From: Clostridia bacterium
GTDB lineage: Bacteria > Bacillota > Clostridia > Christensenellales > UBA3700
Reading direction: 5' to 3'
Length of the DNA stretch: 64,000 bases
Assembly (NCBI GenBank): GCA_029060025.1
Contig: JAIDUV010000027.1
Location: forward strand, 33,862-97,861
A program made the translations under genes and the position numbers. This document shows, one piece after another, positions 35,354 to 58,712 of this stretch. The notes beneath the pieces are model-generated. The model saw only the letters and a list, made by a program, of their open reading frames with translations. It searched no databases and was not told where the DNA came from. Within the stretch, counting starts at the first letter, position 1, and the number at the start of each line of letters is the position of its first letter.

Positions 35354-36589
35354 CTATTTGTTGGGCAAAAAATTCAATGCGCTCAACGGCAATTCGACTA
35401 TAAAGCGGGTGTATTCTCCCAATTGACTTTCGCATTTAATTTTGCCTTTGAGCGAATCCACGATGGATTTTGCAATACTCAAACCAAGACCGAAAGAATT
35501 GCCGGTGTCTTTATGAGAAGAATCAACCTTGTAAAATCTGTCGAATATATGATCGATTTTTTCTTGCGGTATTCCTTCGCCTGTATTTGTCAAAGTGATT
35601 ACAGCGTAGCGTCTCGTCTTTTGCAAATGCAATGTCATTTTACCTTTTTCGGGAGTATATTTGATTGCGTTGTCAAGCAATATTCCTACGAGTTTTTCTA
35701 TCTCGGCAGTGCTTGCCGAAACTTTGATATTCTCGTCGGCTGTGTAGTCAAGAGTAATTGATTTTTCATAACATATTGCTTCAAATGACAGTGTCATACC
35801 TTCGACTATGTCGTTGATTATCAAATCTTCTCGCTGGGTATTTATTTTGTTGGATTCATATTTTGTCAACTCCAGCATATCTAAAATCAAAGATTGCATT
35901 CTTCCAAGTTGATAGCCGGCAGATTCAAGCCATTTTCTGTTGTCGTCAACGGTGGAAGAAGGATCGCTTTGAATAAGTTCTAGATTGGTTCTGACGACTG
36001 TCAAAGGAGTTTTAAGTTCGTGCGATGCGTTGGCAATCAATTCTTGTTGACGTAAGAAAGACTGCTTTACAGGCTCAATAGCGTGCTTTGCAAAGTAGTA
36101 GTAAAATAAGAATATAATAAGCATACCGACGATACAAATACAAGTCAGCGTGATGCTCATAATATTAAGATAGTTGTATGATTTTGTATAATCTATTATC
36201 GTGTATTTTGTTGCATTCTTACCGCTTTCTTTGACGGTAGTAGCGATGAATTTATATCTTCTTCCGCTTTCGGTATTAAATGAGCCGCTCTCGACCTTTT
36301 TTCCTGTCACGTTTTTGACGACTGCCTGTATTTCTTCGCGCGTAAAGTAGTCGGGGGAGTAATACGTGGTCGGCTCGTGATTTTCCACTTCGACGACGTA
36401 GACGTAGTTGTCGCTTTGGAAGTAAGGTCCCGCGGCGGCTTTTAAAAGATCGTTTTCGATATCTGTCAAAGTCTGAACTCTCGATATGAGAAATACGAGA
36501 GAGCAGGCAAGTATTATAAACGCCCAGCCTATTGCCAATGGGACGTAAAAGAATTTTCGTTGAAGTTTTCTAAATACTTTGTCGTTCAT
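35354..36589 (-). CDS. Membrane sensor histidine kinase
   Basis: Two TMs; ASHELKTPL, LLDNAIKY, NTGEGI, FDRFYK, GLGLSIA. Confidence 0.95.
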   Translation of the reverse strand: MNDKVFRKLQRKFFYVPLAIGWAFIILACSLVFLISRVQTLTDIENDLLKAAAGPYFQSDNYVYVVEVENHEPTTYYSPDYFTREEIQAVVKNVTGKKVESGSFNTESGRRYKFIATTVKESGKNATKYTIIDYTKSYNYLNIMSITLTCICIVGMLIIFLFYYYFAKHAIEPVKQSFLRQQELIANASHELKTPLTVVRTNLELIQSDPSSTVDDNRKWLESAGYQLGRMQSLILDMLELTKYESNKINTQREDLIINDIVEGMTLSFEAICYEKSITLDYTADENIKVSASTAEIEKLVGILLDNAIKYTPEKGKMTLHLQKTRRYAVITLTNTGEGIPQEKIDHIFDRFYKVDSSHKDTGNSFGLGLSIAKSIVDSLKGKIKCESQLGEYTRFIVELPLSALNFLPNK

Positions 36590-37464
36590 CAATTTTTTGC
36601 GGCAAGTTGATAGCCTACGCCCCTTATTGAATTGATTGTAAAGGCAGCGTTGACGTAATTGAGTTTCTTCCGCAAGAAAGATATAAATACCTCAAGCGAG
36701 TTGGATTCAAAGTCGTTGTCAAATCCCCAAACTTTGTTGATAAGGGGCTCTTTTTCGGCAACGTGACGAGGTCTTTCAAAAAAATATCTCATTATATCAA
36801 ACTCTTTTTGAGAGAGTTTGACGCTCTTATTTTCGTTTTTGTTTATAAGTTGAAGCGTAGATAGGCTCAAAGATATAAATACCTCAAGCGAGTTGGATTC
36901 AAAGTCGTTGTCAAATCCCCAAACTTTGTTGATAAGGGGCTCTTTTTCGGCAACGTGACGAGGTCTTTCAAAAAAATATCTCATTATATCAAACTCTTTT
37001 TGAGAGAGTTTGACGCTCTTATTTTCGTTTTTGTTTATAAGTTGAAGCGTAGATAGGCTCAAAGACACGTTTTCATAGGTAATGAGGTTGTCGGGCGTAG
37101 CGTCAGTCTTTCTTCTCAAAAGCGCTCTAATACGCGCCAACAGTTCTGCAGTGGAGAAGGGCTTTGGCAAATAGTCGTCGGCGCCTAGGTCGAGACCTTT
37201 GACTTTGTTGTATTCTTGCGAGAGCGCCGTCAGCATAATTACAGGCGTGGTAATTCTTTTTTCGCGTACTTGACTCAACACTTCAAAGCCGCTCTTCTTG
37301 GGCATCATCACGTCAAGTATTATCAAATCAAAAATATTCGACAGCGCGAGTTGAAGTCCCGCTTCGCCGTCGTTTGCCACTTGCACCTCATATTTTTCCT
37401 TTTGCAAAACAGTACTCAATGCTTCGCAAAGGCTCATTGAATCTTCTACCAACAATATTCGCAT
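36589..37464 (-). CDS. OmpR-family response regulator with an internal 64-aa duplication
   Basis: LLVED, LDVMMP, LTA, KPF receiver; the wHTH segment is repeated twice; ends IRGVGY. Confidence 0.9.
   Translation of the reverse strand: MRILLVEDSMSLCEALSTVLQKEKYEVQVANDGEAGLQLALSNIFDLIILDVMMPKKSGFEVLSQVREKRITTPVIMLTALSQEYNKVKGLDLGADDYLPKPFSTAELLARIRALLRRKTDATPDNLITYENVSLSLSTLQLINKNENKSVKLSQKEFDIMRYFFERPRHVAEKEPLINKVWGFDNDFESNSLEVFISLSLSTLQLINKNENKSVKLSQKEFDIMRYFFERPRHVAEKEPLINKVWGFDNDFESNSLEVFISFLRKKLNYVNAAFTINSIRGVGYQLAAKN
36677..37065. repeat. Exact tandem duplication, 2 x 192 bp, in frame
   Basis: 36677-36868 is identical to 36869-37060, with AAAGA microhomology at 36677, 36869 and 37061. 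Confidence 0.95.
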
Positions 37465-37609: not shown

Positions 37610-40600
37610 TTAAGCGGCATTTTGCATTGAAGCAGAACCAATGCCTGACGTAAAACCGCTGTTGTTGACGTTGCCGCTGTTGATAGTGCCGTCATTTCCC
37701 AAGTCTGACGGAGATTTTGTCAGAGTGGCTTGACATTGCGAAGAGTCGGAATCTTTGTAATAGCCGTGTCCGATTGCTGTAATTATAATACGGTATCCGC
37801 CATTTTCTGCGATGCTGCTGTCATACTCAATGCCATAGAGTTCCTTCAAGTCGTCAAAGTTGATGCTGTATCCTACGCTTCCTTCCGTCAGAATAGACGT
37901 TCTGCCTATTTCGATGATCTTGCTGTCGTTGATTTGAAGTTCTACAAGATATTCGTATCCATTTTGCACGCCTTGCCAACTTGCGTGAATTGCCGCTGAT
38001 TTAGTCTCTTCGTTGCCGTCGTCTTCGCTTATCGTTGCGGTAATAGTATCTTCTTCGACAGCCGTGAGTTTTTGGGTCGTGGAGTGCGCAATCATTGAGA
38101 TAGGCGAGTCTTTTATATTTGGATTTTCAGTATTGATTGCCTTTACTCTCACAGAGTGATCGCCCACTTTGTTGACGTATTGCGTAATGTCCGCGTTGAA
38201 CTTGTTGCCGTCTTCATTAAGAGTGAGATTGGTAATCTCTTTGTTGTCAATGAATATCTTGTATGCGTTTGCGTTCGGTACTTTGGTAAACTCAAAGAAA
38301 GTCTTGGTAGTCTCGTCTTCGGTCTTTGTATATACGCGAAGTCCGGTAGGCATATTAAGCGTGATTATATAGTCGTATTTTACTGATATAGAATCGCCGT
38401 TGACATACATTGTCGTAGATCCGATTTCCTCAAAGTTCAAATCGTCGGAGTAGTTGCCTTCAGGAGTAACAGTGATTGTATAACTCTTGCCCGGTGTCGA
38501 AACGTATTGCGTTATATCAAATTCCGGATCGTCAGAGGTGTTCTTTTCCCAGCGCAGAACTACGTCGTTTTCAGCCACGCCGTCGCTTATCAAGAATTGG
38601 TACGACTTTGCATACTTCACTTTAGCGGCTTTGCAATATATTCTGTTTTCTCTCTCTTCGATAATTATATCTATTGGTTGAGCCAACTTTTCAACGTAGA
38701 TTACGTTTTCGCAACCTGTCATATTATGGGTAGCGTTGAGGTCTCTGAAGATTATCAAATTCTTGACGTTTTGATACGTCGGGCAGGTGTGACCTTCTTG
38801 CATTATGACTTGCTTACCGCCTATGACGGTATTTGAGATATTGCCTGCGACAGTGGCGGTAGAGTCGCTGTCAAGTTGCAAAGTAGCAACGGTGCTATCG
38901 CTCTTAACCGTCAAGTTGCTGCCAATCAAAGAAATAGTATTTGAAATTTTTACTCCGCTTTCTACGATAGTATTGGGGCAGTTCAAGACGTTGATTTGGC
39001 TTGTAGACTTAGCGTCTATTATATTGCCTGCAAATACTACTTTACTTGCGCTTATCTCTGCGTCGATTATGTTGGTTTCGCCGCCTTCAAAGTTGTAGAT
39101 CGTAAATGATTTTGCCGTTACTCTCAAGGTTTCGCAAGATACGTTTGCCAAAAGTACGATGTCCAAGTTGGGAGCGTTTATTTCAATCGCGCCTGCTTTG
39201 AGGTTGGACTTTTTATGAGTGACAAATTCTTTACCTTTTCTAGTACCAATATACAGCGTGCCTGATTTTTCTGACGTGATAGTAAGAGTTCCGGATACGC
39301 CCAACGTGTGTTTGTTGAGGTCAATGCTATATATATTGTTGTCGTCAAAAGTCAAGTTGTCGCAAGAGATGTTGTTGTCAAGCACGTAGAAATATTTGTC
39401 AAGACCGCCTTGTTTGCTTGCGACGAAATCGTCTGCGTTCTTGACGAAAATTCTCGGAGCGTGGAAGAATACTATAGGCAGTATTATTGCCAAGAGCACT
39501 CCCACGAGGCATACGCTTGCAACTATGGCAATTATGCCTTTTTTGCCCAACTTTTTCTTTTGTCCGACAGGTTGGTCTTTCTTTTCTTTTTTATCGGATT
39601 TATCTTTTTTCTTTTTATCTTTGCTATCTTCGCTGTCTTCTTTTTTGTCGGAAGAACCGTCTTGAGTTACTTCTTCTGCTTTGTCTGCTTGGTCAGCGTC
39701 ACTTGATTGCAAAATAATCTCTCCGTGCAAAAACTCTTCCATAAGTTCTTCACCTGTGGAGAAGAAGAGTCCTGCTTCTTTTGCGTTTTCTTCGCTATAT
39801 GGCGCGCCTACTGCGGGGCTTTGCTCTTCGCCTGCTTTGCGAGCGTAGATTACAAACGGCACAGGATCGCTTGTGTGAGTCTTAAGCGAGAGCGGAGTAG
39901 GATGGTCTGGGGCAATGAGTATCTTGTAGTCCTCATTCATAAGGTCAAGTTGTTCTTTTACGTACTTGACTACTATGCTGTCTATAAGTTCAATAGATTT
40001 GACCTTGTTGTCAGCGTCTCCTTGGTGTCCGCACTCGTCGGGAGCCTCCATATGGATATATACGTAGTCGTATCCCTCTTTAAGAGCCTCTATGGCAGCC
40101 TCGGCTTTTCCCTTGAAGTTGGTCTTGTACGTACCGGTTGCGCCGTCTACGTTGATGACTTTCATTTGCGCGCCTGTTCCGATACCCTTTATCAAGTCTA
40201 CTGCAGATATGACTGCGCCCTTGATGCCGTACTTTTCTTCAAATGGAGTGAGTTGAGGGCGTGTGCCTTCGCCCCAAAGCCAAATGCTATTGGCAGGCTT
40301 TAGACCTTGAGCAATACGCTTTTGGTTTACAGGATGATCTTTTAGCAAATTGTAAGAATCCGTCATTATATCCAAAAAGATATCACCGTACTCGCCCTTG
40401 GGAAGATACTGAGTGATTTTCTTGTCGGAAATATCGTGCGGAGGAGTGAAGTCTGTGCCAGTCTCGGCATTGTGCGCAACGAGACAGTGGCGGTAACTTA
40501 CGCCAGTGTAGAAATCAATATATTCGTCTCCGAGATTTTGTTGGAGATATTCTATGAGTTGTCTTGCTTCCTCGGTAGAAATTTCGCCTGCGGAATAATC

Positions 40601-40939
40601 AACCATAGTCTTGTCGGCGTAGTTCTCTTCGTCGGATAGCGTGACGAGATTGCATCTAATAGCCACGTCGGTGTCCTTGAGGTCAATGCCGATCGAGAGC
40701 GCTTCGAGTGGGGAGCGCCCCGTATAGTACTTGTCGGGAGCGTAACCCATCATAGAGAGGTTTGCCACGTCGCTACCCGGCTTCATACCGTCGGGTACTG
40801 TCTTGACAAGACCCAATTTGCCTCTTTTACACAAGTCGTCTATATTTGGCTTGTCTGCTACTTCAAGAGGTGTGCGACCTCCGAGAGCGTTTGAAGGGTA
40901 ATCGGCCCAGCCGTCGCCCAAAATTACCACATACTTCAT
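37610..40939 (-). CDS. apgM: Cofactor-independent phosphoglycerate mutase (ApgM family) fused to a TM helix and a large extracellular domain
   Basis: GDGWAD, PGSDVANL, HMEAPDECGHQGD and PDHPTP...TH in residues ~1-408, then a D/K/E linker, TM IIAIVASVCLVGVLLAIILPIVFF and ~620 aa beta-rich region. Confidence 0.85.
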   Translation of the reverse strand: MKYVVILGDGWADYPSNALGGRTPLEVADKPNIDDLCKRGKLGLVKTVPDGMKPGSDVANLSMMGYAPDKYYTGRSPLEALSIGIDLKDTDVAIRCNLVTLSDEENYADKTMVDYSAGEISTEEARQLIEYLQQNLGDEYIDFYTGVSYRHCLVAHNAETGTDFTPPHDISDKKITQYLPKGEYGDIFLDIMTDSYNLLKDHPVNQKRIAQGLKPANSIWLWGEGTRPQLTPFEEKYGIKGAVISAVDLIKGIGTGAQMKVINVDGATGTYKTNFKGKAEAAIEALKEGYDYVYIHMEAPDECGHQGDADNKVKSIELIDSIVVKYVKEQLDLMNEDYKILIAPDHPTPLSLKTHTSDPVPFVIYARKAGEEQSPAVGAPYSEENAKEAGLFFSTGEELMEEFLHGEIILQSSDADQADKAEEVTQDGSSDKKEDSEDSKDKKKKDKSDKKEKKDQPVGQKKKLGKKGIIAIVASVCLVGVLLAIILPIVFFHAPRIFVKNADDFVASKQGGLDKYFYVLDNNISCDNLTFDDNNIYSIDLNKHTLGVSGTLTITSEKSGTLYIGTRKGKEFVTHKKSNLKAGAIEINAPNLDIVLLANVSCETLRVTAKSFTIYNFEGGETNIIDAEISASKVVFAGNIIDAKSTSQINVLNCPNTIVESGVKISNTISLIGSNLTVKSDSTVATLQLDSDSTATVAGNISNTVIGGKQVIMQEGHTCPTYQNVKNLIIFRDLNATHNMTGCENVIYVEKLAQPIDIIIEERENRIYCKAAKVKYAKSYQFLISDGVAENDVVLRWEKNTSDDPEFDITQYVSTPGKSYTITVTPEGNYSDDLNFEEIGSTTMYVNGDSISVKYDYIITLNMPTGLRVYTKTEDETTKTFFEFTKVPNANAYKIFIDNKEITNLTLNEDGNKFNADITQYVNKVGDHSVRVKAINTENPNIKDSPISMIAHSTTQKLTAVEEDTITATISEDDGNEETKSAAIHASWQGVQNGYEYLVELQINDSKIIEIGRTSILTEGSVGYSINFDDLKELYGIEYDSSIAENGGYRIIITAIGHGYYKDSDSSQCQATLTKSPSDLGNDGTINSGNVNNSGFTSGIGSASMQNAA

Positions 40940-41074
40940 ATTTTCACCTATATAAGAATGCGTAACGCTACGCATAATTTATTCACAGTTTATTATATTA
41001 TATATAATATCCAATGTCAATTGTTTTATGACTAAGATTATTTAAAGTAACGGGGCGCGCTTTTTATAAAGATT

Positions 41075-41236: not shown

Positions 41237-42643
41237 TTATCCAAGGATGTTTTTGTCGTCTTTTTCACAAGGCACTTTGCAAGGATATTTGCCGGTAAAG
41301 CAACCTTTGCAGAATGTGACTTTTGAATCGGGAGCAATCTTGTCGACAGTCTTTACGTCGAGGAATGCAAGCGAGTCTGCGCCAATCTTTTGTCTCAACT
41401 CTTCCATAGTATAGTTGTTGCAAGCAAGATCCTTTCTCGACGGAATATCAGTACCGAAGAAGCAGGGGTAAATAAATGGTGGAGAAGATATTCTTACGTG
41501 CACTTCTTTCGCGCCCGACCTCTTGAGAAGTTTGATAATATTTGCCAAAGTAGTGCCTCTGACGATGGAGTCGTCGACCATAACAAGTCTTTTGCCTTCG
41601 ACGTTGCTCTTCAAAGTATTGAGTTTGAGCGCAACGCTGCGTTCTCTCATTGCTTGCGTAGGTTGAATAAAAGTTCTGCCTATATATCTGTTTTTGATAA
41701 GACCCACGCCGTAAGGAATACCGCTTTCGTGCGAATAGCCTATTGCTGCAGGAAGACCGCTGTCGGGTACGCCTATTACGAGATCTGCGTCGGCAGGAGC
41801 GATTTTTGCAAGCATTTTGCCAGCGTTCATTCTTGCTTCGTTGACGCCTTGACCGTCGATTACGCTGTCGGGTCTGGCGGTGTAGATATGCTCAAATATG
41901 CAAAGTCCGCCGCTGTGACCGCAATATTTCTCATTGGACTCTATGCCGTCTTCGGTGACGATTACTATTTCGCCCGGACGAACGTCTCTTTCAAAGGTTG
42001 CGCCTATCGTCTCAAACGCGCAACTTTCGCTTGCGAATATTACGTTGTCCTGCAGTTTTCCCATACACAGAGGACGTATTCCGTATTTATCTCTTACGGC
42101 AATGAGTTTTCTTGGGCTCATTATGAGAAGAGAGAATGCTCCTTGCAGCATAGGGAATACCTTTTCCACAGCCTCTTCGATGCTCTTTGATTTGAGTCTT
42201 TGAATGGCAATCAAATAGGATATAACTTCGCTATCGCTCGTAGTGTGGAAGATTGCGCCTTTAGCCTCAAGTTTGTCTCTCAATTCTTTTGCGTTGGTTA
42301 TATTTCCGTTATGCGAAACGGTGAGGTTGCCTTTTGCGTACTTTACGCTTATAGGTTGAGCGTTTTCCGGAGTATTGTTGCCCGTAGTTGAGTATCTCAC
42401 GTGTCCTATAGCAATTTCGCCTTGCAATTTTGCAAGAATAGAATCGTTGAAAACTTCGCTTACGAGACCCATATTTTTGACAAGGGTGATTTCTCTGTCG
42501 TTATTGACGGCAATACCTGCCGCCTCTTGACCTCTGTGTTGCAGCGCGAACAGTCCAAAGTAGACTTGTTGCGCAATGTTGCCAAGACGAGATTTATCGT
42601 ATATACCGAATACGCCGCACTCATCCTTGATATTTTCTGACAT
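41237..42643 (-). CDS. purF: Amidophosphoribosyltransferase
   Basis: Propeptide then ECGVFG, LQHRGQE, GHVRYST, CIFEHIY.ARPDS, VDDSIVRGTT, CKGCFTGKYP. Confidence 0.97.
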   Translation of the reverse strand: MSENIKDECGVFGIYDKSRLGNIAQQVYFGLFALQHRGQEAAGIAVNNDREITLVKNMGLVSEVFNDSILAKLQGEIAIGHVRYSTTGNNTPENAQPISVKYAKGNLTVSHNGNITNAKELRDKLEAKGAIFHTTSDSEVISYLIAIQRLKSKSIEEAVEKVFPMLQGAFSLLIMSPRKLIAVRDKYGIRPLCMGKLQDNVIFASESCAFETIGATFERDVRPGEIVIVTEDGIESNEKYCGHSGGLCIFEHIYTARPDSVIDGQGVNEARMNAGKMLAKIAPADADLVIGVPDSGLPAAIGYSHESGIPYGVGLIKNRYIGRTFIQPTQAMRERSVALKLNTLKSNVEGKRLVMVDDSIVRGTTLANIIKLLKRSGAKEVHVRISSPPFIYPCFFGTDIPSRKDLACNNYTMEELRQKIGADSLAFLDVKTVDKIAPDSKVTFCKGCFTGKYPCKVPCEKDDKNILG

Positions 42644-42953: not shown

Positions 42954-45038
42954 TCAGTCCTTGACTGAGAAGAGAATTGCTCCGTAAGTTGGGAACGGCC
43001 AATACTTGTCGGCGGTATTGACTTCCATCTCGTCTGCCGCGGCGCGCAACTTGTCCATTGCTGTAATTACGTCCGTGCGGTAGAACATTGCCTTTTTTTC
43101 GATGTCTGCGATAGCCTCCGCCTTGTGAACTTTTGTTGACAGTTCTTCGAGATACTTATACGCGTCTGCCGAGAGTTTTGTCAACTTCTTTGCGGTAGCC
43201 GTCTGCGCAGTTGCTTCAAATCCCAATTCTTTTGTTGCTAAGGCGGTCTTTGCAAGTTCTTTTATGTATGTAGTTACAGCGGGCAAAATCTGCTTGTTTG
43301 CCATATCTATCATTGTCAAAGCCTCGATGTTGACGACTTTTGCATAGTTCTCAAGCAAGATGTCCGTTCTGGATTCTACTTCCAAAGCAGAGAATATGCC
43401 GTGCTTTTCAAAGAGGGCTATATTCTTTGCGCTCTTGAAGTAGGGGATTGCTTCCGGCGTAGATTGCAAGTTGAGAAGTCCTCTCTTTTTTGCCTCTACC
43501 ACCCATTCGTCGGAATAGCCGTTGCCATTGAATATTATTTTCTTGTGAGCAATGAAAGTCTTCTTGACAAGGTCTTTGACTGCCGCCATAAAGTCGCTTG
43601 CGCCTTCAAGTTCGTCAGCGAATTGGTCGAGGGATTCTGCGACTATAGTATTGAGTATAATATTAGGTCCGGCAATAGAGAAGGTCGAGCCCAACATTCT
43701 GAATTCAAATTTGTTGCCTGTGAACGCAAATGGGGAAGTACGGTTTCTGTCGGTGGTGTCCTTTGTGAACTTGGGCAGAGAACTTACGCCGATTTCGTAT
43801 TCGCATTTTGCTCTTTTGCTGTACGTTCTGTCTTCGGCAATTGCCGTGAGTATGCCGTCGAGTTCTTCGCCGAGGAACATTGATACTATAGCAGGAGGCG
43901 CTTCGTTGGCTCCAAGTCTGTGATCGTTGCCTGCGCTTGCTACGCTTACTCTCAATAGGTCTTGATAATCGTCTACCGCCTTTATGACCGCAGCCAAGAA
44001 GAGTAAGAATTGCGCGTTGTCTTCCGGAGTGTCACCCGGCTCAAGCAGGTTTTCGCCCTTGTCCGTCGACATAGACCAGTTGTTGTGTTTGCCGCTTCCG
44101 TTGACGCCTTCAAAAGGCTTTTCGTGGAGCAGACATACCATTCCGTGACGGCTAGCAATCTTTTTCATCATCTCCATTGTCAACTGATTTGCGTCGGAAG
44201 ACACGTTGGATTGCGAGAAGATAGGCGCAAGTTCGTGCTGAGCGGGCGCAACTTCGTTGTGCTTTGTCTTGGCTAGCACGCCGAGTTTCCAAAGTTCGGT
44301 GTCGAGGTCTGCCATATACTTGACGACTCTTTGCTTGATAGTGCCGAAATAGTGGTCTTCAAGTTCTTGCCCCTTTGGAGCGGGTGCGCCGTAAAGCGTA
44401 CGGCCGGTGTATATCAAGTCCTTTCTCTTTTCATATACGCTTTTGTCAATGAGGAAGTATTCTTGCTCTGGACCTACGGTCGTAATGACTCTGTTGACGT
44501 CTTTGCCGAAAAGTTTGAGTATTCTGCACGCCGTTTTGCTAAGCGCTTTCATTGACTTAAGAAGAGGAGTTTTTTTGTCGAGAACTTCTCCGGTATACGA
44601 TACGAACGCCGTCGGTATGCAAAGCGTTCCGTCTTTGATAAACGCGTACGAAGTCGGGTCCCAAGCCGTATAGCCTCTTGCTTCAAAAGTGGCTCTGATA
44701 CCGCCGTTGGGGAAAGAAGACGCGTCTGGCTCGCCCTTAATGAGTTCTTTTCCGCTGAATTCCATTATTACTTTGCCGTCGGCAGTGGGTTGAATAAAGG
44801 CGTCGTGCTTTTCCGCCGTGATACCCGTCATCGGTTGAAACCAGTGGGTATAGTGTGTACAACCTTTTTCTATTGCCCAATCCTTCATTGCGTTGGCAAT
44901 AACCGTCGCGCAAGTCAAAGAAATAGGAGTGTCGTTTGCGATACAGGATTTGAGTTCCTTGTATGTGTACTTGGGAAGTCTTTCTTGCATTACCGTGTCG
45001 TTGAATACTAGACTGCCGAAGAGGTCTGACATTACCAT
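42954..45038 (-). CDS. glnN: Glutamine synthetase type III
   Basis: [82 protein letters not shown] all intact. Confidence 0.95.
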
Positions 45039-45073
45039 ATTTGTTATATCTCCTTAAAATTTGTTTCTGTTGT

Positions 45074-45156
45074 AAAAGAAAAAGCGCCAAACAGGGAATT
45101 CCTGATTAGCGCCTTTGCTACAGTGACAGTATATATTTTCTGGAGAAAGATGTCAA
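45074..45156 (-). promoter_or_regulatory. GSIII promoter and leader: ANTAR-type hairpin overlapping an intrinsic terminator
   Basis: TTGACA (45156-45151)-17-TATACT (45133-45128). Hairpin TAGC-AAAGGC-GCTA (45120-45107). Terminator GGCGCTAATCAGG/CCTGTTTGGCGCT + TTTTCTTTT. Confidence 0.8.
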
Positions 45157-45297
45157 ACGATTTTAATAGTAATTTTTGGATTTTTTTGATTTTTTGTCAA
45201 AATGTTTTTGCAAGTCGTCGTAATATCAAGGCGGTAGAGAGGGGGTAGTATACAGTAGAGAATTCTTTGCTTGGGGCGAAATGGCATCATAAAGATT

Positions 45298-45335
45298 GAG
45301 ATTCTCCACTTCGCTTTGCTGCGCTCGAAATGACA
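45298..45335. repeat. REP-like repeat family I, right half
   Basis: gagattctccacttcgctttgctgcgctcgaaatgaca. Confidence 0.7.
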
Positions 45336-45710
45336 TACTATATTATTGACATATTTTTGTCGTTAAGGTTGTCATTGTGTTATACGCAATGACTGAAAAG
45401 GGAAATCGTAGCAATATTTTGCGCGCGAAATAATATAAATATTTATATGGACAATATAGGAAAATATAATCAAAATCAGCGAGTCTTTTCAGTGTGGCAA
45501 AATTATCGTAATAATTGTCATATAATGGATAAATGTCAATTAAATATGTAAATTTGAGCAATATAAATTCTTAAATTAGTCAGAATTTAGAAAATATAAA
45601 AGAAATCAAAAATATTTTTTTCAATTTATTGACAAGGACAATTTGGGAGTATTATAATTGCACCAAAGGAAGGGGCGAGAGACTTTTTCGTCCTTTAAAA
45701 GGTTTGTACT

Positions 45711-46805
45711 ATGTTGAAAGAAGGTGAGGTGAGAATACCGTCGGGATGCGCGATTTCGGGCATATTTTCCAGAAGCGGAAAACTCACCAACGGAGAGAAG
45801 ATCATTACGTCGATAGCCACTATGCACGACAGATCCAACGGTTTAGGCGGCGGTTTTGCAGGGTATGGAATTTATCCGCAATACGCAGATTTTTATGCTT
45901 TTCATATTTTCTACGACGACAATGAGATAAGAAAAGAGGCGGAGAATTTTCTCTACCAAAACTTTTTCATTGTCAATATGTCTATGATACCCATACGAAA
46001 GACCAAGAAGATATCTGACGAGCCGCTCATTTTGAGATACTTCGTCAAGCCTCTTGACGCAAGATTGCACGAGACAAATCTCGACGAAAAAGAATTTGTT
46101 GCCAGAATGGTAATAAAAGTTAATACGACTATCAAAGGCGCGTATATCTTTTCAAGCGGAAAGAATATGGGAATTTTCAAGGCGGTAGGTTATCCCGAGG
46201 ACGTAGGAGAGTATTATAGGCTGGAGGAATACGACGCTTACTGTTGGACGGCGCACGGCAGATATCCGACTAATACGCCCGGTTGGTGGGGCGGAGCGCA
46301 CCCATTCGGTATGCTTGATTATTCCGTCGTGCACAACGGAGAAATTTCTTCTTACGACGCCAACAGACGGTATATAGAGATGTTTGGATATAAGTGTACG
46401 CTTATGACGGACACCGAAGTAATTGCTTACGTCGTAGACTTTTTATGCCGCCGTCAGGGCTTGAGTATGCAGGAGATGGCAGGGGTCATAGCCGCGCCGT
46501 TCTGGAGTACGATAGAGAAAAAATCTCCCGAGGAGAGAGCGCTTGCCGAATACTTGCGCAATACTTTCTCAAGTTTGCTTATCACCGGACCTTTTAGCAT
46601 AATGGTGGGATTTGAAAACGGACTTATGGCGCTCAACGACAGGCTTAAGTTGCGCAGTATGGTCGTGGGTGAAAAGGACGATATGACGTATATCGCAAGC
46701 GAAGAATGCGCTATAAGAGTAATTGAGCCAAACCTTGACAGAATTTGGTCACCGAGGGGCGGAGAACCTGTAATAGTCACTCTTGACAAAAAGGAGGGAA
46801 AATAA
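45711..46805 (+). CDS. Class-II glutamine amidotransferase, split glutamate synthase subunit (GltB1 type)
   Basis: SGCAI N-terminal nucleophile, DRSNGLGGG, HGRYPTNT.GWWGGAHPF, HNGEI, DTEV, DRLKLR. Confidence 0.9.
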   Translation: MLKEGEVRIPSGCAISGIFSRSGKLTNGEKIITSIATMHDRSNGLGGGFAGYGIYPQYADFYAFHIFYDDNEIRKEAENFLYQNFFIVNMSMIPIRKTKKISDEPLILRYFVKPLDARLHETNLDEKEFVARMVIKVNTTIKGAYIFSSGKNMGIFKAVGYPEDVGEYYRLEEYDAYCWTAHGRYPTNTPGWWGGAHPFGMLDYSVVHNGEISSYDANRRYIEMFGYKCTLMTDTEVIAYVVDFLCRRQGLSMQEMAGVIAAPFWSTIEKKSPEERALAEYLRNTFSSLLITGPFSIMVGFENGLMALNDRLKLRSMVVGEKDDMTYIASEECAIRVIEPNLDRIWSPRGGEPVIVTLDKKEGK

Positions 46806-46806
46806 T

Positions 46807-48312
46807 ATGTCGATAAATTATATATATCCTCCGTATGAAGTCGTAAGAAATTTTAGTAAGTGCATAAATTGCAAGATATGCGTCAAGCAGTGCGCCAACG
46901 AGGTGCATACTTTTGACGAGAAGAAAGGCATAATGCTTGCCGATGATACCAAGTGCGTCAACTGTCACAGGTGCGTTACCACTTGCCCTACGAGAGCGCT
47001 AAAGATTGTCAAATCTGACAATACATATAAAGAAAACGCCAACTGGTCGGCGGAGTCTATGAAGGAGATTTACCGTCAGGCGGAGAGCGGCGGAGTTTTG
47101 TTGTCGTCTATGGGTAATCCTCAGCCTTTGCCGGTGTATTGGGACAAGATACTTATCAATGCTTCGCAGGTAACAAATCCCTCTATCGACCCATTGAGAG
47201 AACCTATGGAAACTACGGTATTCTTGGGTAGTAAACCCGATAAAATCGTCAGAGACGAAAATGGCAAAATCGTTGACAATCTGTCACCGCAACTCAAATT
47301 GAGTACGCCTATTATGTTTTCGGCAATGAGTTATGGCTCTATAAGTTACAACGCTCACGCGGCGCTTGCCAAGGCGGCGGAAAAGTTGGGAATATTCTAT
47401 AACACAGGCGAGGGCGGTCTACACGAGGACTTTTATCAGTACGGCAAAAATACTATCGTGCAAGTTGCGTCGGGGAGATTTGGCGTATATAAAGATTATC
47501 TTGAGGCGGGCGAGTGTATAGAAATCAAGATAGGTCAAGGCGCTAAGCCTGGTATAGGCGGACACTTGCCGGGCGCAAAGATCGTGGGAGACATCTCAAA
47601 GACGAGAATGATACCTGTAGGCAGTGACGCCATATCTCCCGCGCCTCACCACGATATTTATTCTATTGAAGACTTGCGTCAACTTGTATTTTCTCTCAAA
47701 GAAGCAACAGGATATAAGAAGCCAATCGCAGTCAAAGTCGCGGCAGTGCACAACGTGGCTGCCGTCGCAAGCGGTATTGCTAGAAGTGGCGCAGATATAA
47801 TCGTCATTGACGGCTTTAGAGGTGGCACCGGAGCGGCGCCAACGAGAATAAGAGACAACGTGGGTATTCCTATCGAACTTGCCCTTGCTAGCGTAGACAA
47901 GAGACTGCGTGACGAGGGTATCAGAGGCAACGTGTCTTTGGTAGTAGGCGGCTCTATTCGCAACAGCGCGGACGTCATAAAAGCAATTGCATTGGGCGCT
48001 GACGCTTGTTATATTGCCACTGCGGCGCTTATGGCAATGGGCTGTCACCTTTGCAGGTCTTGTCACCTCGGTAAATGCAATTGGGGTATCGCAACTCAAG
48101 TGCCGGAACTCGTAAAGAGACTTGACCCCGAGGTCGGCTGTAACCGACTTGTCAACCTCGTCACCGCTTGGACGCACGAAATCAAAGAGATGATGGGCGG
48201 TATGGGTATCAACTCTATAGAGGCGCTCAAAGGCAACAGGCTTATGCTTAGAGGCGTGGGACTTAATGAGAGGGAGTTGGAGATTTTAGGCATCAAACAC
48301 GCCGGCGAATAA
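46807..48312 (+). CDS. Glutamate synthase FMN-binding subunit with 2x[4Fe-4S] (GltB2 type)
   Basis: CxxCxxCxxxC twice, MSYGS, NTGEGG, QVASGRFGV, KIGQGAKPG.GGHLPG.K, SPAPHHDIYSIEDL, C..C..C..G.C..G.ATQ. Confidence 0.93.
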   Translation: MSINYIYPPYEVVRNFSKCINCKICVKQCANEVHTFDEKKGIMLADDTKCVNCHRCVTTCPTRALKIVKSDNTYKENANWSAESMKEIYRQAESGGVLLSSMGNPQPLPVYWDKILINASQVTNPSIDPLREPMETTVFLGSKPDKIVRDENGKIVDNLSPQLKLSTPIMFSAMSYGSISYNAHAALAKAAEKLGIFYNTGEGGLHEDFYQYGKNTIVQVASGRFGVYKDYLEAGECIEIKIGQGAKPGIGGHLPGAKIVGDISKTRMIPVGSDAISPAPHHDIYSIEDLRQLVFSLKEATGYKKPIAVKVAAVHNVAAVASGIARSGADIIVIDGFRGGTGAAPTRIRDNVGIPIELALASVDKRLRDEGIRGNVSLVVGGSIRNSADVIKAIALGADACYIATAALMAMGCHLCRSCHLGKCNWGIATQVPELVKRLDPEVGCNRLVNLVTAWTHEIKEMMGGMGINSIEALKGNRLMLRGVGLNERELEILGIKHAGE

Positions 48313-48313
48313 T

Positions 48314-48445
48314 GCGACCGCATATATCAGCCGTCTTTTTGCCGTAGGCGTCGGGTCTCAAGAAGTCGACGTGTACGGCAAGTACACTTGACGACTTCAT
48401 TTCGCCCTAGCACGGACAAAAATACAACTAATCTCTGCGGTTGTT
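48314..48445. repeat. Structured intergenic repeat (family II), copy without insert
   Basis: Aligns with 3284-3455; nested stems. Confidence 0.8.
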
Positions 48446-48567
48446 CACGGCAAGATATAATGGCAAGTAAATTGAAATTTTGTCTATCTCTTTTTTGCCG
48501 AACATAAGCGCGTATAGCGGCTCACTTGAGACAAAGAGTAAACTACTATAGCAGTGCGCTATCATAT

Positions 48568-48605
48568 TGTCATTTCGACTGCAGCGTAGCGTAATGGAGA
48601 AATCT
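48568..48605. repeat. REP-like repeat family I, left half
   Basis: tgtcatttcgactgcagcgtagcgtaatggagaaatct matches 62061-62153 once the insert there is removed. Confidence 0.75.
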
Positions 48606-48652
48606 AATCTAATAAATATCAAATATTACTCCAAGAGGAGAAACAAAGAACA

Positions 48653-49375
48653 ATGTTAAAAATTGATTGTACCAATAAACACTTTTCTGAGATAGGAAAG
48701 TTGATACGCGAAACCAAAGAAACTCAAATAGTAATCGACAATGCGCAAGGACACAGATATATTGCGTCGGGCGTGGGCGGCAAGGAGATAACTATCAATG
48801 GCACTCCCGGCAACGCAATGGGCGCATATCTTGACGGCTGTAAGATTGTAGTTAACGGCAGCGCGCAAGACGCTATCGGAGATACTATGAACGACGGACT
48901 TATTGTCATTCACGGCAACAGCGGAGACGCCACCGGATATTCTATGCGCGGCGGAAAGATTTTTATCAAAGGTGATGCGGGTTATCGCGCAGGTATACAT
49001 ATCAAGGCGTATAAGGATAAATTTCCGGTGATTGTCATTGGCGGAAAGGCAGGAAGTTTTCTTGGAGAATACCAAGCCGGCGGTATTATACTTGTGCTTG
49101 GCATTGACACCGACAGCAAGACAAACGTAGGTTATTTTACCGGCAACGGTATGCACGGCGGCAAGATAATCTTACGTAGCGAACAATTGCCCGACCTGCC
49201 CGAGCAAATAGTTGCAAGAAAGGCAAATGCCCAAGATCTAAAAGAGATAGAGCAGTACGTCAACGAGTATTGCGGATATTTTGGCAACGACCCCAAGGAG
49301 ATAATGAGCAAGGATTTCTTTGTGTTGACGGCTAATAGCGCGAATCCGTATAAGCAATTATATACGTCGGTGTAA
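48653..49375 (+). CDS. Glutamate synthase C-terminal GXGXG subunit (GltB3 type)
   Basis: Repeated G..G...G..M.GG beta-helix motifs (GDTMNDG, GYSMRGG, GEYQAGG, GNGMHGG). Confidence 0.9.
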   Translation: MLKIDCTNKHFSEIGKLIRETKETQIVIDNAQGHRYIASGVGGKEITINGTPGNAMGAYLDGCKIVVNGSAQDAIGDTMNDGLIVIHGNSGDATGYSMRGGKIFIKGDAGYRAGIHIKAYKDKFPVIVIGGKAGSFLGEYQAGGIILVLGIDTDSKTNVGYFTGNGMHGGKIILRSEQLPDLPEQIVARKANAQDLKEIEQYVNEYCGYFGNDPKEIMSKDFFVLTANSANPYKQLYTSV

Positions 49376-49543: not shown

Positions 49544-49822
49544 TTAGTTATCAAAAATTTCCTGTCCCATAGCAAGCCCAAAGGCAAAAGCCTCTCTGTA
49601 TACATCATAACCGTAGAGAACGGTTTCGCGTAAGTGCAGGTCTTGCAATTCGTTAAATTGTTGCAAAAGTTTGGGGTTGTCGGCAATTTGTTTTTGAAAA
49701 TCTTCAATTTTATCAACTAAGTCGTCTAAAGTTTTGTTATACTCGTCACTTGAAGTGGGGTTATCCAAGTTACCTCGTGTTCCCATCAACATTTGCATAA
49801 TAGCAGAATTTTTTTGTTTCAT
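49544..49822 (-). CDS. Small helical hypothetical protein (DUF6809-like)
   Basis: RBS AAGGAG; C-terminal YREAFAFGLAMGQEIF. Confidence 0.65.
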   Translation of the reverse strand: MKQKNSAIMQMLMGTRGNLDNPTSSDEYNKTLDDLVDKIEDFQKQIADNPKLLQQFNELQDLHLRETVLYGYDVYREAFAFGLAMGQEIFDN

Positions 49823-50030
49823 AGTTTGCTCCTTGTTCAATAAAAGTGTATATATTATTACATAAATTTTTGCAAAATACTTTACTTGCACATTTTTGTG
49901 CAAACATTTTTGTCCAACTAATAAATCTAATAATTTTTATATATTTACTATTTACAAAACTTGATATTTAAGATTTAGTATGATATAATTATAAAAATAT
50001 TTAGGAAGTACGCCCCTAAAAGAGGTTTTT

Positions 50031-51332
50031 ATGAGTCAAACGGTAAAAGAAGTTTTGGATTTTGTAAAAGACAACGACGTCAAATTTGTCAAATTGACTT
50101 TTTGCGACTCCTTCGGAAATATCAAAAATATATCAATCATAGCCGACGAGTTGCCAAGCGCCTTCGAAAAGGGAGTATCATTTGAAGCCTATTCGGTGGG
50201 CGGCTTCGTCGACCCGGAAGAAAGCGACTTGTTGCTTTACCCAGACGCCTCAACTATTCAACTGTTGCCTTGGAGACCCCAGCACGGAAGCGTAGTGAGG
50301 TTTTTTTGTAAGATAAGACATACCGACGGCAGAGACTTTGACGGTGACGGCAGAGGACTTCTTGCCAATGCGCAAAACAAACTTTCGCAGATGGGCTTGT
50401 CCTGTCTTATCGGCAGTGACTGCGAGTTCTATCTCTTCAAGTTGAACGAAGACGGAACGCCTACGCTCGAGCCGCACGATATGGCGGGGTATCTCGACGT
50501 TGCGCCGTTTGACAAAGGCGAAAACGTAAGAAGAGATATTTGCCTTACGCTGGAGAGAATGGGTATCAAGCCTATCTCTTCTCACCACGAAAGAGGACCT
50601 GGACAAAATGAAATATGCTTCAAAGTCAACGACGCCCTTATGGCTGCGGACGACCTCTTGACATTCAAGACGGTGGTCAAAGCCGTGGCTAATATGAACG
50701 GACTTCACGCGTCTTTTATGCCAAAGCCGCTTAAGGACGAGATAGGAAGCGGTCTGCATATCAATTTGTCTCTTCTCAAAGACGGCGACAATTTGTTTGA
50801 ACCGTCGCGCCTGTCGGGATCTAAAGAGGCTGAGAGTTTTGTTGCGGGCATACTTGCAAGGGCAAAGGAAATGGCGGTATTTCTCAATCCTACCGTCAAC
50901 TCGTATGAGAGACTTGAAAACAACGAAGATATAGAGGCTTACAATCAAATTGCTTGGTCGTATCTCAACGGTCGTCAATTGATAAGGATAAAAAAAGACG
51001 GACTTGCCAAGATGCAATTGCGTTCTGCAGACCCATCTTGCAATCCGTATATCGCGTACGCGCTCTTGCTATTTGCAGGCGCAGAGGGAATAGAGCAGGG
51101 GCTTAGATTGCCAAAGGAGTTGGACGTCAACAACGCGGGCGAAGCAGAATGTCTGCCCGAAGACCTTATGAGCGCAATCCAACTTGCTAAAAACAGTGAC
51201 TTTATCGCAAGGTACATACCTAGCAAGACGTTGAAAAAATTCTTTGAGTATAAGGAAAATATGTACAAGAATTATTCGCTGTCAAAGGATAAGGACGCTT
51301 TTATGACAAAGGCATACTTCAATAAGATTTAA
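50031..51332 (+). CDS. Glutamine synthetase type I-like protein with degenerate active site
   Basis: GS-I fold motifs ESDLLLYPD, SHHE.GPGQNEI, FMPKP, NPTVNSY and DP.CNPY are present, but several catalytic motifs are altered (see findings). Confidence 0.85.
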   Translation: MSQTVKEVLDFVKDNDVKFVKLTFCDSFGNIKNISIIADELPSAFEKGVSFEAYSVGGFVDPEESDLLLYPDASTIQLLPWRPQHGSVVRFFCKIRHTDGRDFDGDGRGLLANAQNKLSQMGLSCLIGSDCEFYLFKLNEDGTPTLEPHDMAGYLDVAPFDKGENVRRDICLTLERMGIKPISSHHERGPGQNEICFKVNDALMAADDLLTFKTVVKAVANMNGLHASFMPKPLKDEIGSGLHINLSLLKDGDNLFEPSRLSGSKEAESFVAGILARAKEMAVFLNPTVNSYERLENNEDIEAYNQIAWSYLNGRQLIRIKKDGLAKMQLRSADPSCNPYIAYALLLFAGAEGIEQGLRLPKELDVNNAGEAECLPEDLMSAIQLAKNSDFIARYIPSKTLKKFFEYKENMYKNYSLSKDKDAFMTKAYFNKI

Positions 51333-51396
51333 GCGAAGATAGATAATAAAATGCAACAGTGGGTGCGCAGATAGGCGCACCGGTGTAGGAGAGAAC

Positions 51397-51966
51397 GTGG
51401 CAAGTGCCCTAATAGTGTCGACAGCGGAATATGTGAGTAAGTTTTCGGCAATGTTGACCGAAGTGGGCTTTGCTGACGTCTATCAGGCTCATTCGGGAGT
51501 TGAGGCAAGACATCTGATAGTCGAAAGGCAATACGCGCTTATGATAATCAATGCTCCTCTCGTCGACGAGTTTGGATACGACCTTGCGATATACGCGGTG
51601 GAAAATACGACTATGAGCGTACTTATGCTGGCGCGGGGAGACGTGTGCGAGGCGGTGGAAAACAAAGTCGAAGATTACGGAGTTGTGGTTATGTCAAAGC
51701 CGGTGACGGCAGAAGGCTTGTTTAAGACCTTGAAAGCGCTGTACGCCAATCACAACCGAATAAATTCGATAGTGCTAAGCAATCGCAGATTGCAAGACAA
51801 GATAGAGGAACTCAAACTGGTGGACAGGGCAAAGTGCTTGCTTATCTCACGCGAAGGAATGAGCGAAGAGCAGGCGCATAAGTATATCGAAACCGCCGCT
51901 ATGGATATGAGAGTGTCCAAAAAACAAATTGCTGAAAAAATTATATCAATAAAACAATACGATTAA
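51397..51966 (+). CDS. ANTAR-domain antiterminator with pseudo-receiver domain (AmiR/NasT/NitR-like)
   Basis: GTG start with AGGAG RBS. ANTAR motif VDRAKCLLI..EGMSEEQAH.YI...AMDMRVSK. Receiver lacks the acidic pocket and phospho-Asp. Confidence 0.9.
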   Translation: MASALIVSTAEYVSKFSAMLTEVGFADVYQAHSGVEARHLIVERQYALMIINAPLVDEFGYDLAIYAVENTTMSVLMLARGDVCEAVENKVEDYGVVVMSKPVTAEGLFKTLKALYANHNRINSIVLSNRRLQDKIEELKLVDRAKCLLISREGMSEEQAHKYIETAAMDMRVSKKQIAEKIISIKQYD

Positions 51967-51982: not shown

Positions 51983-53061
51983 ATGAAAAAAGTTTATCTT
52001 ATTCTCGAAAACGGTAAGGTCTTTGAAGGCGAGTCGATCGGCGTCGAAGGCGAAGTAATCGGCGAAGTAGTCTTTACCACTGCAATGACAGGATATCTTG
52101 AGACTTTGACAGACCCAAGTTATTACGGTCAGATAGTTTGTCAGACCTTTCCGCTGATAGGTAACTACGGCGTTATCGAAGAGGACTTTGAGTCTCCGAG
52201 CAGCGCGGTCAAGGGATATATCGTCAGAGATATATGCGACGAGCCGTCCAATTTCCGCTCCCAAGGCAAACTCGACGATATGCTCAAGAAGTTGGGCGTA
52301 ATAGGTATCTGCGGAATAGACACCAGAGAACTTACTAAGATCGTCAGAGAAAGCGGCGTTATGAACGGAATAATCACCGACAAGCCTACGCTCGACAAGG
52401 AGCAAAAGACTGCCCTAAAAGAATACGTCATTACCGATGCGGTCAAGAGCGTATCTTGCAAAGAAAAGAGAGTAGTCTGCAACGTCAAAAAGCCAAAGAA
52501 GAGAGTGGCGCTCCTTGATTACGGTATCAAGAGAAATATAATCGAGAAGTTGGCAAGAAGAGGATGCGAGGTTACTATTTTCCCGCACGACACTTCGGCT
52601 GAAGAGATAATTGAATTTGCTCCCGACGGAATTATGCTTTCCAACGGACCGGGCAACCCCGAAGAAAACGTATACGAGATTAAGCAAATCAAAAAACTCG
52701 TCAAGAGCGGTATACCAATGTTCGGTATCTGTATAGGACATCAGTTGCTTGCCCTTTCTCAAGGCGCAAAGACTTATAAACTCAAGTACGGTCACAGAGG
52801 CGGAAACCAACCTGTCAAAGATCTTGCAACAGGCAGAGTATACGTATCTACGCAAAATCACGGATACGCAGTCGACCTCGACACTCTTCCGAAGAGCGCC
52901 CAGGTGACTTTCGTCAACGTCAACGACGGCACTTGCGAGGGACTCAACTATAAAAACGCAAACGTATTTTCGGTTCAGTTCCATCCCGAGGCTTGCGCAG
53001 GACCGCTTGACACAGGATATTTGTTTGACAGATTTATGGAGAATATGGAGGAGAGAAAGTA

Positions 53062-53062
<1 letters not shown>
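51983..53062 (+). CDS. carA: Carbamoyl-phosphate synthase small subunit
   Basis: GEVVFTT.MTGY, LSNGPGNP, FGICIGHQ, GHRGGNQP, QNHGY, QFHPEA. Confidence 0.97.

Positions 53063-58712
<5,650 letters not shown>

Follow-up and report, generated by a model that had tools for sequence, protein, structure and literature searches.

The stretch of DNA analysed here (64,000 nt of a Clostridia bacterium, assembly GCA_029060025.1, contig JAIDUV010000027.1; hereafter, the window) carries a pair of adjacent genes that is probably devoted to nitrogen sensing. The first one (50031–51332, + strand) encodes a 433-amino acid (aa) protein resembling glutamine synthetases (GS) of type I-alpha, a probable pseudoenzyme and sensor with Gln-synt_N and Gln-synt_C domains and numerous substitutions with respect to the GS of Bacillus subtilis. 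The second one (51397–51966, + strand) encodes a 189 aa NitR-like antiterminator with an ANTAR domain and a pseudo-receiver in which Asn52 occupies the phospho-Asp position. Our reading, to which we assign a probability of around 0.55, is that the pair constitutes a switch of the clostridial glnA-nitR type that responds to nitrogen status without a kinase, in which the GS-like protein gates the ANTAR protein and the latter acts on the leader RNA of a type III GS gene (GSIII).

According to this proposal, the NitR-like protein would recognise a UAGC[AAAGGC]GCUA hexaloop hairpin (P1) at the start of the GSIII leader, and its stabilisation would block an overlapping terminator and allow GSIII to be made. 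As the receiver is predicted not to be phosphorylatable, the activity of the ANTAR protein would be set by the protein encoded just upstream. The latter would be a GS-I-alpha derivative that gave up catalysis, with the n2 metal site altered and both the catalytic Arg and the N-loop Asn replaced, while retaining the amino-acid and n1-metal site and the inter-subunit pocket for 2-oxoglutarate (2-OG). With plentiful nitrogen, the GS-like oligomer would hold the antiterminator inactive, and a rise in 2-OG or a fall in glutamine would release it.

The receiver of the ANTAR protein

The 189 aa protein showed a clear ANTAR domain (PF03861, 59.2 bits, cut-off 27.3), and its score with Response_reg (PF00072, 21.2 bits) fell under the cut-off of 30.2. 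Its ANTAR region matched Rv1626 (1s8n), the response regulator 6wsh, and NasR, AmiR, and EutV-like chains. A preliminary description of this DNA, made from the sequence alone, had proposed that the receiver lacks both the phospho-acceptor and the acidic pocket. The first point was confirmed by alignment to Rv1626, where 'miiNapl' of the query (Asn52) falls on 'vimDvkm', and the second by the N-terminus LIVSTAE, with Ser-Thr at the place expected for the acidic pair.

A scan of one genome per species yielded 80 loci related to the pair, and in 59 of them an ANTAR gene was found behind the GS-like gene, at a distance of 12–288 nt as measured between alignment ends. In the 60 ANTAR sequences thus available (window plus 59 loci), the phospho-Asp position is Asn in 56, Asp in three (L029, L036, and L043), and unread in one, and the acidic pair is present in none. 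The Asn sits in a conserved IN-x-PL-x-DE-x-G block, and residues K101, P54, and G60 were invariant or nearly so among 47 sequences, the Lys, Pro, and Gly that define the fold being thus retained. Judged by these residues, the receiver is a conserved pseudo-receiver, predicted not to be phosphorylatable.

It is highly improbable that a kinase from another locus phosphorylates the ANTAR protein as it would an ordinary response regulator. The retained receiver fold and its conserved Lys (K101) would fit such a role, and there are histidine kinases in the genome, as that encoded at 35354–36592 (− strand). However, Asn52 replaces the phospho-acceptor, as Asn does in 56 of the 60 sequences, Ser-Thr replaces the acidic pair, the Response_reg score stays under its cut-off, and this kinase, the nearest one at 13 kb, overlaps its own OmpR-type regulator (36589–37464). 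No orphan kinase was found in the surroundings of the pair, and the earlier statement that the cluster holds no cognate kinase agrees with this pairing of the nearest one.

The GS-like protein and its linkage to the ANTAR gene

The GS-like protein has the two-domain GS-I-alpha fold, with Gln-synt_N (70.6 bits) and Gln-synt_C (280 bits) both over their cut-offs, and its best matches are GSI-alpha enzymes, including B. subtilis GS (4lnf, 327 bits). However, it scored 328.6 bits with the NCBIfam GlnA equivalog TIGR00653, under the cut-off of 429.15. The departures from active GS that had been listed in the preliminary description were all seen in the alignment to 4lnf, namely FDGSS to FEAYS, GPEPEF to GSDCEF, NGSGMH to IGSGLH, NRS to NGR, and RVEVRS to KMQLRS, together with the replacement of the Glu-flap VPGYEAP by ENNEDIEAY, with a two-residue insertion. 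Two further changes were detected, FVRIEE to FVDPEE, which converts the feedback Arg62 into Asp, and GQHEI to GQNEI. In B. subtilis numbering (Arg316, Glu304, and Arg62 are named in PMC10799026), the n2 metal ligands E132, H245, and E333 correspond to Asp, His, and Gln in the window protein, the catalytic Arg316 to Gly, and the Asn of the N-loop (NGSGMH) to Ile. The three n1 metal ligands (E134, E189, and E196) are all present.

The same positions were read in the 60 ANTAR-linked GS-like proteins, window included. Neither the N-loop Asn nor the feedback Arg62 is kept in any of them (0/60 each), the catalytic Arg316 is kept in 24, and the first Arg of RVEVRS in 25. Among the n2 ligands, E132 is kept in 19 (Asp in 37), E333 in 36 (Gln in 20), and H245 in 47 (Arg in 10). 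The n1 ligands E134, E189, and E196 were found in 60, 58, and 59 proteins, respectively, and the glutamate-binding Arg in 58. The losses are specific to lineages: the Christensenellaceae show GSDCEF, NG[RSP], and KMQLRS; one Oscillospiraceae group, with AGSGLR and LIELSS, has lost the metal His and two Args; and Ruminococcus shows GTSCEF. All 20 Christensenellaceae sequences have Gly for Arg316 and Gln for E333, and as the residue following this Gly varies between R, S, and P, it does not represent a shifted catalytic Arg. Both the alignment and these counts uphold the claim that the protein departs from active GS at catalytic positions. The related expectation, that ANTAR-linked homologues lose catalytic residues, held consistently over the 60 proteins, but the losses are variable, and the two Clostridium loci L029 and L035 present an almost full catalytic set.

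Such a mosaic of losses, lineage by lineage, is what relaxed selection on catalysis would produce. Both genes are under strong purifying selection, with ratios of non-synonymous to synonymous substitutions (dN/dS) of 0.03–0.10 for the GS-like gene (8 of 9 pairs computable) and of 0.06–0.15 for the ANTAR gene (6 of 9), these ratios being rough, as dS exceeded 1 throughout and the remaining pairs were too saturated. Taking these residues together, the GS-like protein has probably lost GS activity.

The pocket for 2-OG shows the opposite behaviour to the catalytic site, as it survives where the latter is lost. In PMC10799026 and PMC11957540, the 2-OG ligands are F18, R20, R88, R174, R175, and S191 in the GS of Methanothermococcus thermolithotrophicus and F24, R26, R87, R172, R173, and S189 in GlnA1 of Methanosarcina mazei, whereas in B. 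subtilis GS residues Y20 and E36 would clash with 2-OG and the equivalent of R88 is missing. In a gap-free alignment, F19, K21, R82, R167, R168, and S184 of the GS-like protein correspond to the 2-OG residues of M. mazei GlnA1 (the numbering of the chain being offset by one from that of the paper), B. subtilis E36 has a small residue, Ser35, as its counterpart, and the LPWRP loop is shared with M. mazei without change. Across the 60 linked proteins, the equivalents of M. mazei F24, R87, R172, and S189 are present without exception and that of R173 in 59, and the equivalent of R26 (K21 in the window protein) is most often Arg (36 proteins), otherwise Lys (21) or Ile (three). Because this pocket, known from archaeal GSI-alpha, and the n1 metal/glutamate site are the most strictly conserved features, the signal may be 2-OG. 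The preliminary proposal of a glutamine, glutamate, or ammonium sensor is modified by this conservation, since 2-OG, alone or together with glutamine or glutamate, may be the ligand.

Several points weigh against the proposed switch, and those concerning the GS-like protein are given here. Some of the substitutions in the window protein are conservative (Asp for Glu at the first metal ligand, Glu for Asp at Asp50, and Lys for Arg in KMQLRS), and all the n1 ligands, H245, and R321/R335 are kept, so residual or altered catalysis may persist in it. In loci L029 and L035 hardly any catalytic residue is missing, and therefore ANTAR linkage alone does not equate to a dead enzyme. In addition, the 2-OG residues F, R172, R173, and S were found in 21 of the 21 unlinked homologues, and R87 in nine of them; as these proteins share most of the motif, the pocket is ancestral in GSI-alpha and not specific to a sensor. 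It is thus inherited rather than invented.

These retained residues, with the glutamate-binding Arg among them, are also what could be expected if the GS-like protein were still a working, if unusual, GS and the ANTAR protein were merely co-transcribed with it. In that case, the latter would be controlled otherwise, by its own abundance, by a small ligand bound to the pseudo-receiver, or by another protein, such as the product of the PII-like open reading frame (ORF) at 22771–23058, a single weak match in the genome (30.9 bits). The near-full catalytic set of the ANTAR-linked L029 and L035 proteins fits this alternative, as does the report of the glnA of the glnA-nitR cluster of Clostridium saccharobutylicum as a working GS. 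Nevertheless, we consider it unlikely. Arg316 and E333 are replaced in all 20 Christensenellaceae and the N-loop Asn is lost in the 60 linked proteins; the losses differ between lineages under strong purifying selection, as expected when catalysis itself is not selected; the score stays under the GlnA equivalog cut-off; and an intact GSIII is encoded in the same genome and in the five other genomes tested.

The GS fold has been re-used elsewhere, as in gamma-glutamylputrescine synthetase, the glutamate-methylamine ligase 9qur, and the type III ligase 7cql. Considering also that the glutamate-side residues are kept, the GS-like protein might be another ligase, of the gamma-glutamyl-amine type, actinomycete GlnA-like, or a glutamate-methylamine ligase, whose product or substrate would then be what matters. 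This appears quite improbable, since the ATP-side n2 ligands and the catalytic Arg, which such ligases need, are lost in different ways in each lineage, the family scores are far under their cut-offs (205 versus 650 and 245 versus 469.6), and the best matches are GSI-alpha enzymes.

Regarding the linkage between the two genes, the 59 linked loci include every locus of at least 43% identity except L031, which ends at a contig edge, and L063, with a degenerate GS-like gene and no ANTAR gene detected. They belong to Christensenellaceae, Sedimentibacter, Oscillospiraceae, Ruminococcus, Acetobacterium, Peptococcaceae, Clostridium, Erysipelotrichales, and some spirochaetes. Of the 21 unlinked loci, 19 are distant (40% identity or less) and keep canonical motifs, and were found in Rubrobacter, Omnitrophota, Planctomycetia, and one Clostridiales bin. 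The gene behind the ANTAR gene varies among the linked loci, being carA in 21, pyrG in six, and purF in another six. In one protein of 577 aa (P0121), a GS-like sequence devoid of its last ~45 residues continues in frame into a full pseudo-receiver-ANTAR protein. As a further point against the proposal, P0121 is a singleton encoded on one 6970-nt contig and may be an artefact of assembly or deletion; a search with its ANTAR part for more fusions of this kind recovered only P0121, whose cluster has one member.

We infer that the ANTAR protein receives its signal from the GS-like protein, presumably through physical contact. The gene order is invariant, no other input to the former is evident, and the latter combines the features of a pseudoenzyme with preserved ligand sites; in addition, there is the single in-frame fusion, and AmiC/AmiR, NasS/NasT, and B. 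subtilis GS with TnrA and GlnR provide precedents. A complex prediction, based on a GS-like alignment of 47 rows and an ANTAR alignment and run without controls, gave scores of 0.26 and 0.24, the mark being 0.32. The direction of control, with sequestration at high nitrogen and release by 2-OG, is the weakest step of the scheme; behind it stands the deletion of the GSI-alpha gene of Clostridium thermocellum, which reportedly raised the expression of nitrogen-assimilation genes.

Another possibility would be that the GS-like protein regulates a different target, such as GSIII, the amidotransferases, or a DNA-binding factor, and that the ANTAR protein senses nitrogen independently. B. subtilis GS is described as controlling TnrA and GlnR by contact, and the operon also holds carA, carB, and pyrG. 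However, the tightest and widest linkage is that of the GS-like gene followed by the ANTAR gene, in 59 of the 80 loci and across several orders, whereas the other neighbours vary; in addition, the ANTAR protein has no other evident input, and the in-frame fusion joins it to the GS-like protein. We therefore regard this possibility as improbable and keep the ANTAR protein as the preferred partner.

The GSIII leader

The presumed target, the GSIII gene (42954–45038, − strand; 694 aa, with Pfam GSIII_N, Gln-synt_C, and Gln-synt_C-ter), lies 4993 nt upstream of the GS-like gene. Its product aligned with GSIII of Bacteroides fragilis (3o6x) with 670.9 bits and identical metal and Arg motifs, in line with the intact GSIII that had been described at about 5 kb, and it is apparently intact, likely the working glutamine synthetase and the regulated target. 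The GS family of this genome (2.04 Mb, 93% complete) consists only of the GS-like gene and GSIII, and there is one ANTAR gene. The co-occurrence of GSIII with linked pairs, also anticipated in the preliminary description, was found in the own genome, in five of five further genomes tested, and within 6 kb of the pair in 32 of the 59 linked loci.

Upstream of the GSIII start codon (45038, − strand) we found a promoter-like site (45128–45156, − strand; TTGACA, 17 nt, TATACT), whose TTGACA and TATAcT blocks are conserved in orthologous upstream regions. It is followed by the P1 hairpin (45107–45120, − strand), a candidate ANTAR binding site and antiterminator with A1 and G4 in its hexaloop, and by an intrinsic terminator (45073–45116, − strand), made of a hairpin from 45116 to 45080 and a U-tract down to 45073. 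The terminator was missed by a simple scan due to an internal bulge and was found by RNA folding, with −26.3 kcal/mol, a z of −3.24, and none of 200 shuffles as stable. P1 and the terminator compete for the same nucleotides, the loop and 3' arm of the former serving as 5' arm of the latter, and are thus mutually exclusive. When the regions upstream of GSIII at other loci were aligned, the AGCAAAGGCGCU block and the GGCGCC-U-tract foot were found again, and the apical stem varied. The predicted chain from the promoter, through P1 or the terminator, to GSIII is well supported, both by the sequence and by comparison of loci.

The P1 stem was further analysed for covariation in 54 sites (24 distinct), selected by the loop, its closing C-G pair, a downstream T-run, and position, and not by pairing of the outer stem. 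In the five-pair stem of these leaders, 87.5% of the cells were paired and 31 cells had changed on both sides, giving a covariation score of 0.572 versus 0.212 in shuffles, with none of 500 shuffles as high; sliding the partners lowered pairing to 15–52%. The loop matches the ANTAR target consensus, for which A at position 1 and G at position 4 are described as conserved in PMC3369931. In other lineages, NAAC[AAAGGC]GUUN leaders with a terminator precede the GS-like or the glutamate synthase (GOGAT) genes, and the Clostridium loci L029 and L035 combine the same gene pair with the same leaders. This match to the loop consensus and the co-distribution of protein and leaders argue strongly that the single ANTAR protein would act on the P1-terminator leader.

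Within the 2.04-Mb genome, the exact P1 12-mer appeared once, and 27 matches were obtained when one mismatch was allowed, among them one at 41933–41944 (− strand) of contig C44 that follows a promoter-like TATAAT. The regulon may consist here of just GSIII.

To the points against the switch given above, others are added from the leaders and from expression. The motif is confined in this genome to the GSIII leader, as looser genome scans for a hexaloop plus terminator (part of contig C44 being covered by the stricter scan only) returned only noise elsewhere. The published target model (PMC3369931) comprises two hexaloop hairpins, and only one with A1 and G4 is present in the GSIII leader of the window; a strict genome-wide search for dual hexaloops returned 122 hits, against 94 in shuffled sequence, with none in leaders of the cluster. 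Moreover, the pair's own leader, of around 35 nt, contained neither a terminator nor a hexaloop hairpin in the 18 aligned Christensenellaceae sequences (window included). Finally, contigs from RNA libraries that extend over these genes derive from relatives 90–95% alike and do not prove transcription.

The latter contigs come from a comparison to sequencing runs in which 5–6% of the words matched, all from such relatives, so that starts, ends, and expression levels were not readable. Contigs of this origin cover GSIII, GOGAT, the GS-like gene, and the ANTAR gene, and RNA contigs stop at 45039 and 45058, ends from which nothing can be read.

A second hexaloop, AAAGGA, was seen in one relative (L053). 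An Rfam scan of the whole window at the gathering threshold detected two tRNAs and no family over the GSIII leader. The GOGAT leader (45660–45710, + strand) presents an 11-bp hairpin after an AAAGGA motif, followed by a ribosome-binding site and no U-tract; the hairpin is conserved among the closest relatives only, not family-wide, and could be a degenerate or translational ANTAR site.

As a separate observation, loci L013, L014, and L062 (− strand) showed a perfect bidirectional terminator with a CAC[AAAGGC]GUG hexaloop between GSIII and the next gene, a place at which the window carries another hairpin.

Surroundings and relation to known systems

The GS-like gene is preceded by a promoter-like site (49961–49989, + strand; TTGATA, 17 nt, TG-TATAAT), located ahead of the GS-like, ANTAR, carA, carB-dapF, and pyrG genes, and nearly invariant in the 18 aligned Christensenellaceae sequences. 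This site and the TATAATTATAAAAATATT block behind it (49961–50002, + strand) are almost invariant as a unit, with diverging flanks, and may be an operator for some DNA-binding regulator.

Behind the ANTAR gene, after a 16-nt gap, come carA (51983–53062), a carB-dapF fusion (53062–57108), and pyrG (57105–58712), all on the + strand and all for glutamine-consuming enzymes, pyrG closing the run (51983–58712). The fused product has 1348 aa, in frame, with a complete DapF as its C-terminal part (DAP_epimerase, 217 bits), and the carB-to-pyrG spacing in related Christensenellaceae loci suggests the same fusion there. On the other side, purF, for amidophosphoribosyltransferase (41237–42643, − strand), is located downstream of GSIII, and a three-gene glutamate synthase (45711–49375, + strand; GATase_2, Fer4 plus Glu_synthase, and GXGXG) is divergent from it. 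Between GOGAT and the GS-like gene there is a small ORF (49544–49903, − strand) of 119 aa, more likely of ~92 aa from an internal Met, for which a family search gave nothing above the cut-off and which is kept in some related loci. From purF to pyrG, all genes make or use glutamine, with the exception of this ORF, the GS-like gene, and the ANTAR gene.

Farther away, the PII-like gene (22771–23058, − strand) is the only one found in the genome, with 30.9 bits over a cut-off of 25, and the classical PII/GlnK signalling layer may be reduced in it. Two unrelated observations were made in the window. The first ~385 residues of the ORF at 37610–40975 (− strand, 1121 aa) correspond to a cofactor-independent phosphoglycerate mutase, and the ~740 that follow have no Pfam match. 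In addition, the first two glutamate synthase genes are flanked by inverted copies of a short repeat (45293–45335 and 48568–48610; 43 nt, 77% complementary), which is a multi-copy element in many organisms, as many differently flanked sequencing contigs end there.

The arrangement resembles that of glnA-nitR(-gltAB) in C. saccharobutylicum NCP262, where an ANTAR gene comes directly after one of the GSI-alpha type and glutamate synthase genes lie alongside; this likeness is one of gene order. An antisense RNA against glnA is a further feature of that cluster. A similar cluster is described in C. thermocellum (Clo1313_2030-2036), with the GSI-alpha glnA (Clo1313_2031) adjoining the ANTAR gene Clo1313_2030 and the GOGAT cluster. 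A 2018 review presents NitR as an ANTAR antiterminator that induces GS and GOGAT genes under nitrogen limitation, by a nitrogen-sensing mechanism 'not fully understood'. Unlike glnA-nitR, the GS-like protein of the window has neither the catalytic Arg nor the N-loop Asn and is short of one n2 ligand, GSIII being the likely working enzyme, and the operon of the pair has no leader of the kind and runs on into carA, carB-dapF, and pyrG.

The combination of a pseudo-receiver ANTAR protein with an adjacent candidate sensor gene is shared with AmiC/AmiR of Pseudomonas aeruginosa and NasS/NasT of Paracoccus denitrificans. AmiR and NasT are non-phosphorylated pseudo-receiver ANTAR proteins sequestered by separately encoded ligand-binding partners, as described in PMC3795266 among others. 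In contrast to AmiC and NasS, which have a periplasmic-binding-protein fold and bind amides and nitrate, the candidate partner here has a GS fold and would respond to a central nitrogen signal. The use of a GSI-alpha protein as a nitrogen sensor in contact with a regulator, as proposed here, recalls B. subtilis GS with TnrA and GlnR. That enzyme has full activity, uses Arg62 to sense glutamine, and targets DNA-binding factors of the MerR type, whereas Arg62 is kept in none of the 60 linked proteins, their catalysis is probably lost, and the regulator binds RNA. With the archaeal enzymes of M. mazei and M. thermolithotrophicus the protein shares the 2-OG-coordinating residues at aligned positions, though these enzymes are activated by 2-OG and the pocket would here serve signalling only. 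The leader, with its A1/G4 hexaloop on a short stem exclusive with an intrinsic terminator, follows EutV/EutW and the general ANTAR target, differing from EutV in that the latter is a phosphorylated response regulator acting on dual hexaloops and one hairpin is evident here.

The gene arrangement is thus known, of the glnA-nitR type, and the logic resembles that of partner-gated pseudo-receiver ANTAR systems and of moonlighting GS sensors. In the full-text literature searched, which excluded subscription papers and supplements, no paper was found that calls the ANTAR-linked GS a pseudoenzyme in many lineages, reports the absence of the phospho-Asp from NitR-type receivers, explains nitrogen sensing by NitR or names GS as its sensor, or gives the 2-OG pocket as the conserved feature.

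The way in which NitR-type systems sense nitrogen has been left open since the description of the clostridial glnA-nitR cluster. Should the GS-like protein prove to be the sensor, nitrogen control would be explained for a large group of GSIII-reliant gut and rumen anaerobes, and the protein would be a clear case of an enzyme turned into a pure signal receptor, with intermediates in living lineages, from Clostridium with a full catalytic set to Oscillospiraceae without the metal His and two Args. It would also represent a third, structurally unrelated type of partner, beside AmiC and NasS. There is a practical side in the engineering of C. thermocellum, as deletion of its equivalent glnA is reported to have altered amino-acid secretion and ethanol yield.

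In its broadest form, which we put forward tentatively and at somewhat less than even odds, a dead GSI-alpha oligomer would be a dedicated nitrogen receptor, with its 2-OG pocket and the remnant glutamine/glutamate site, that sequesters and releases a phosphorylation-blind ANTAR protein. If this is true, the pair, with its AAAGGC hexaloop leaders, would act as the principal nitrogen regulator in many Clostridia of gut and rumen and in some spirochaetes, in place of the PII/NtrBC or TnrA/GlnR circuits, and the GS-like protein would be the first known case of a pseudoenzyme-GS in control of an RNA-binding regulator.

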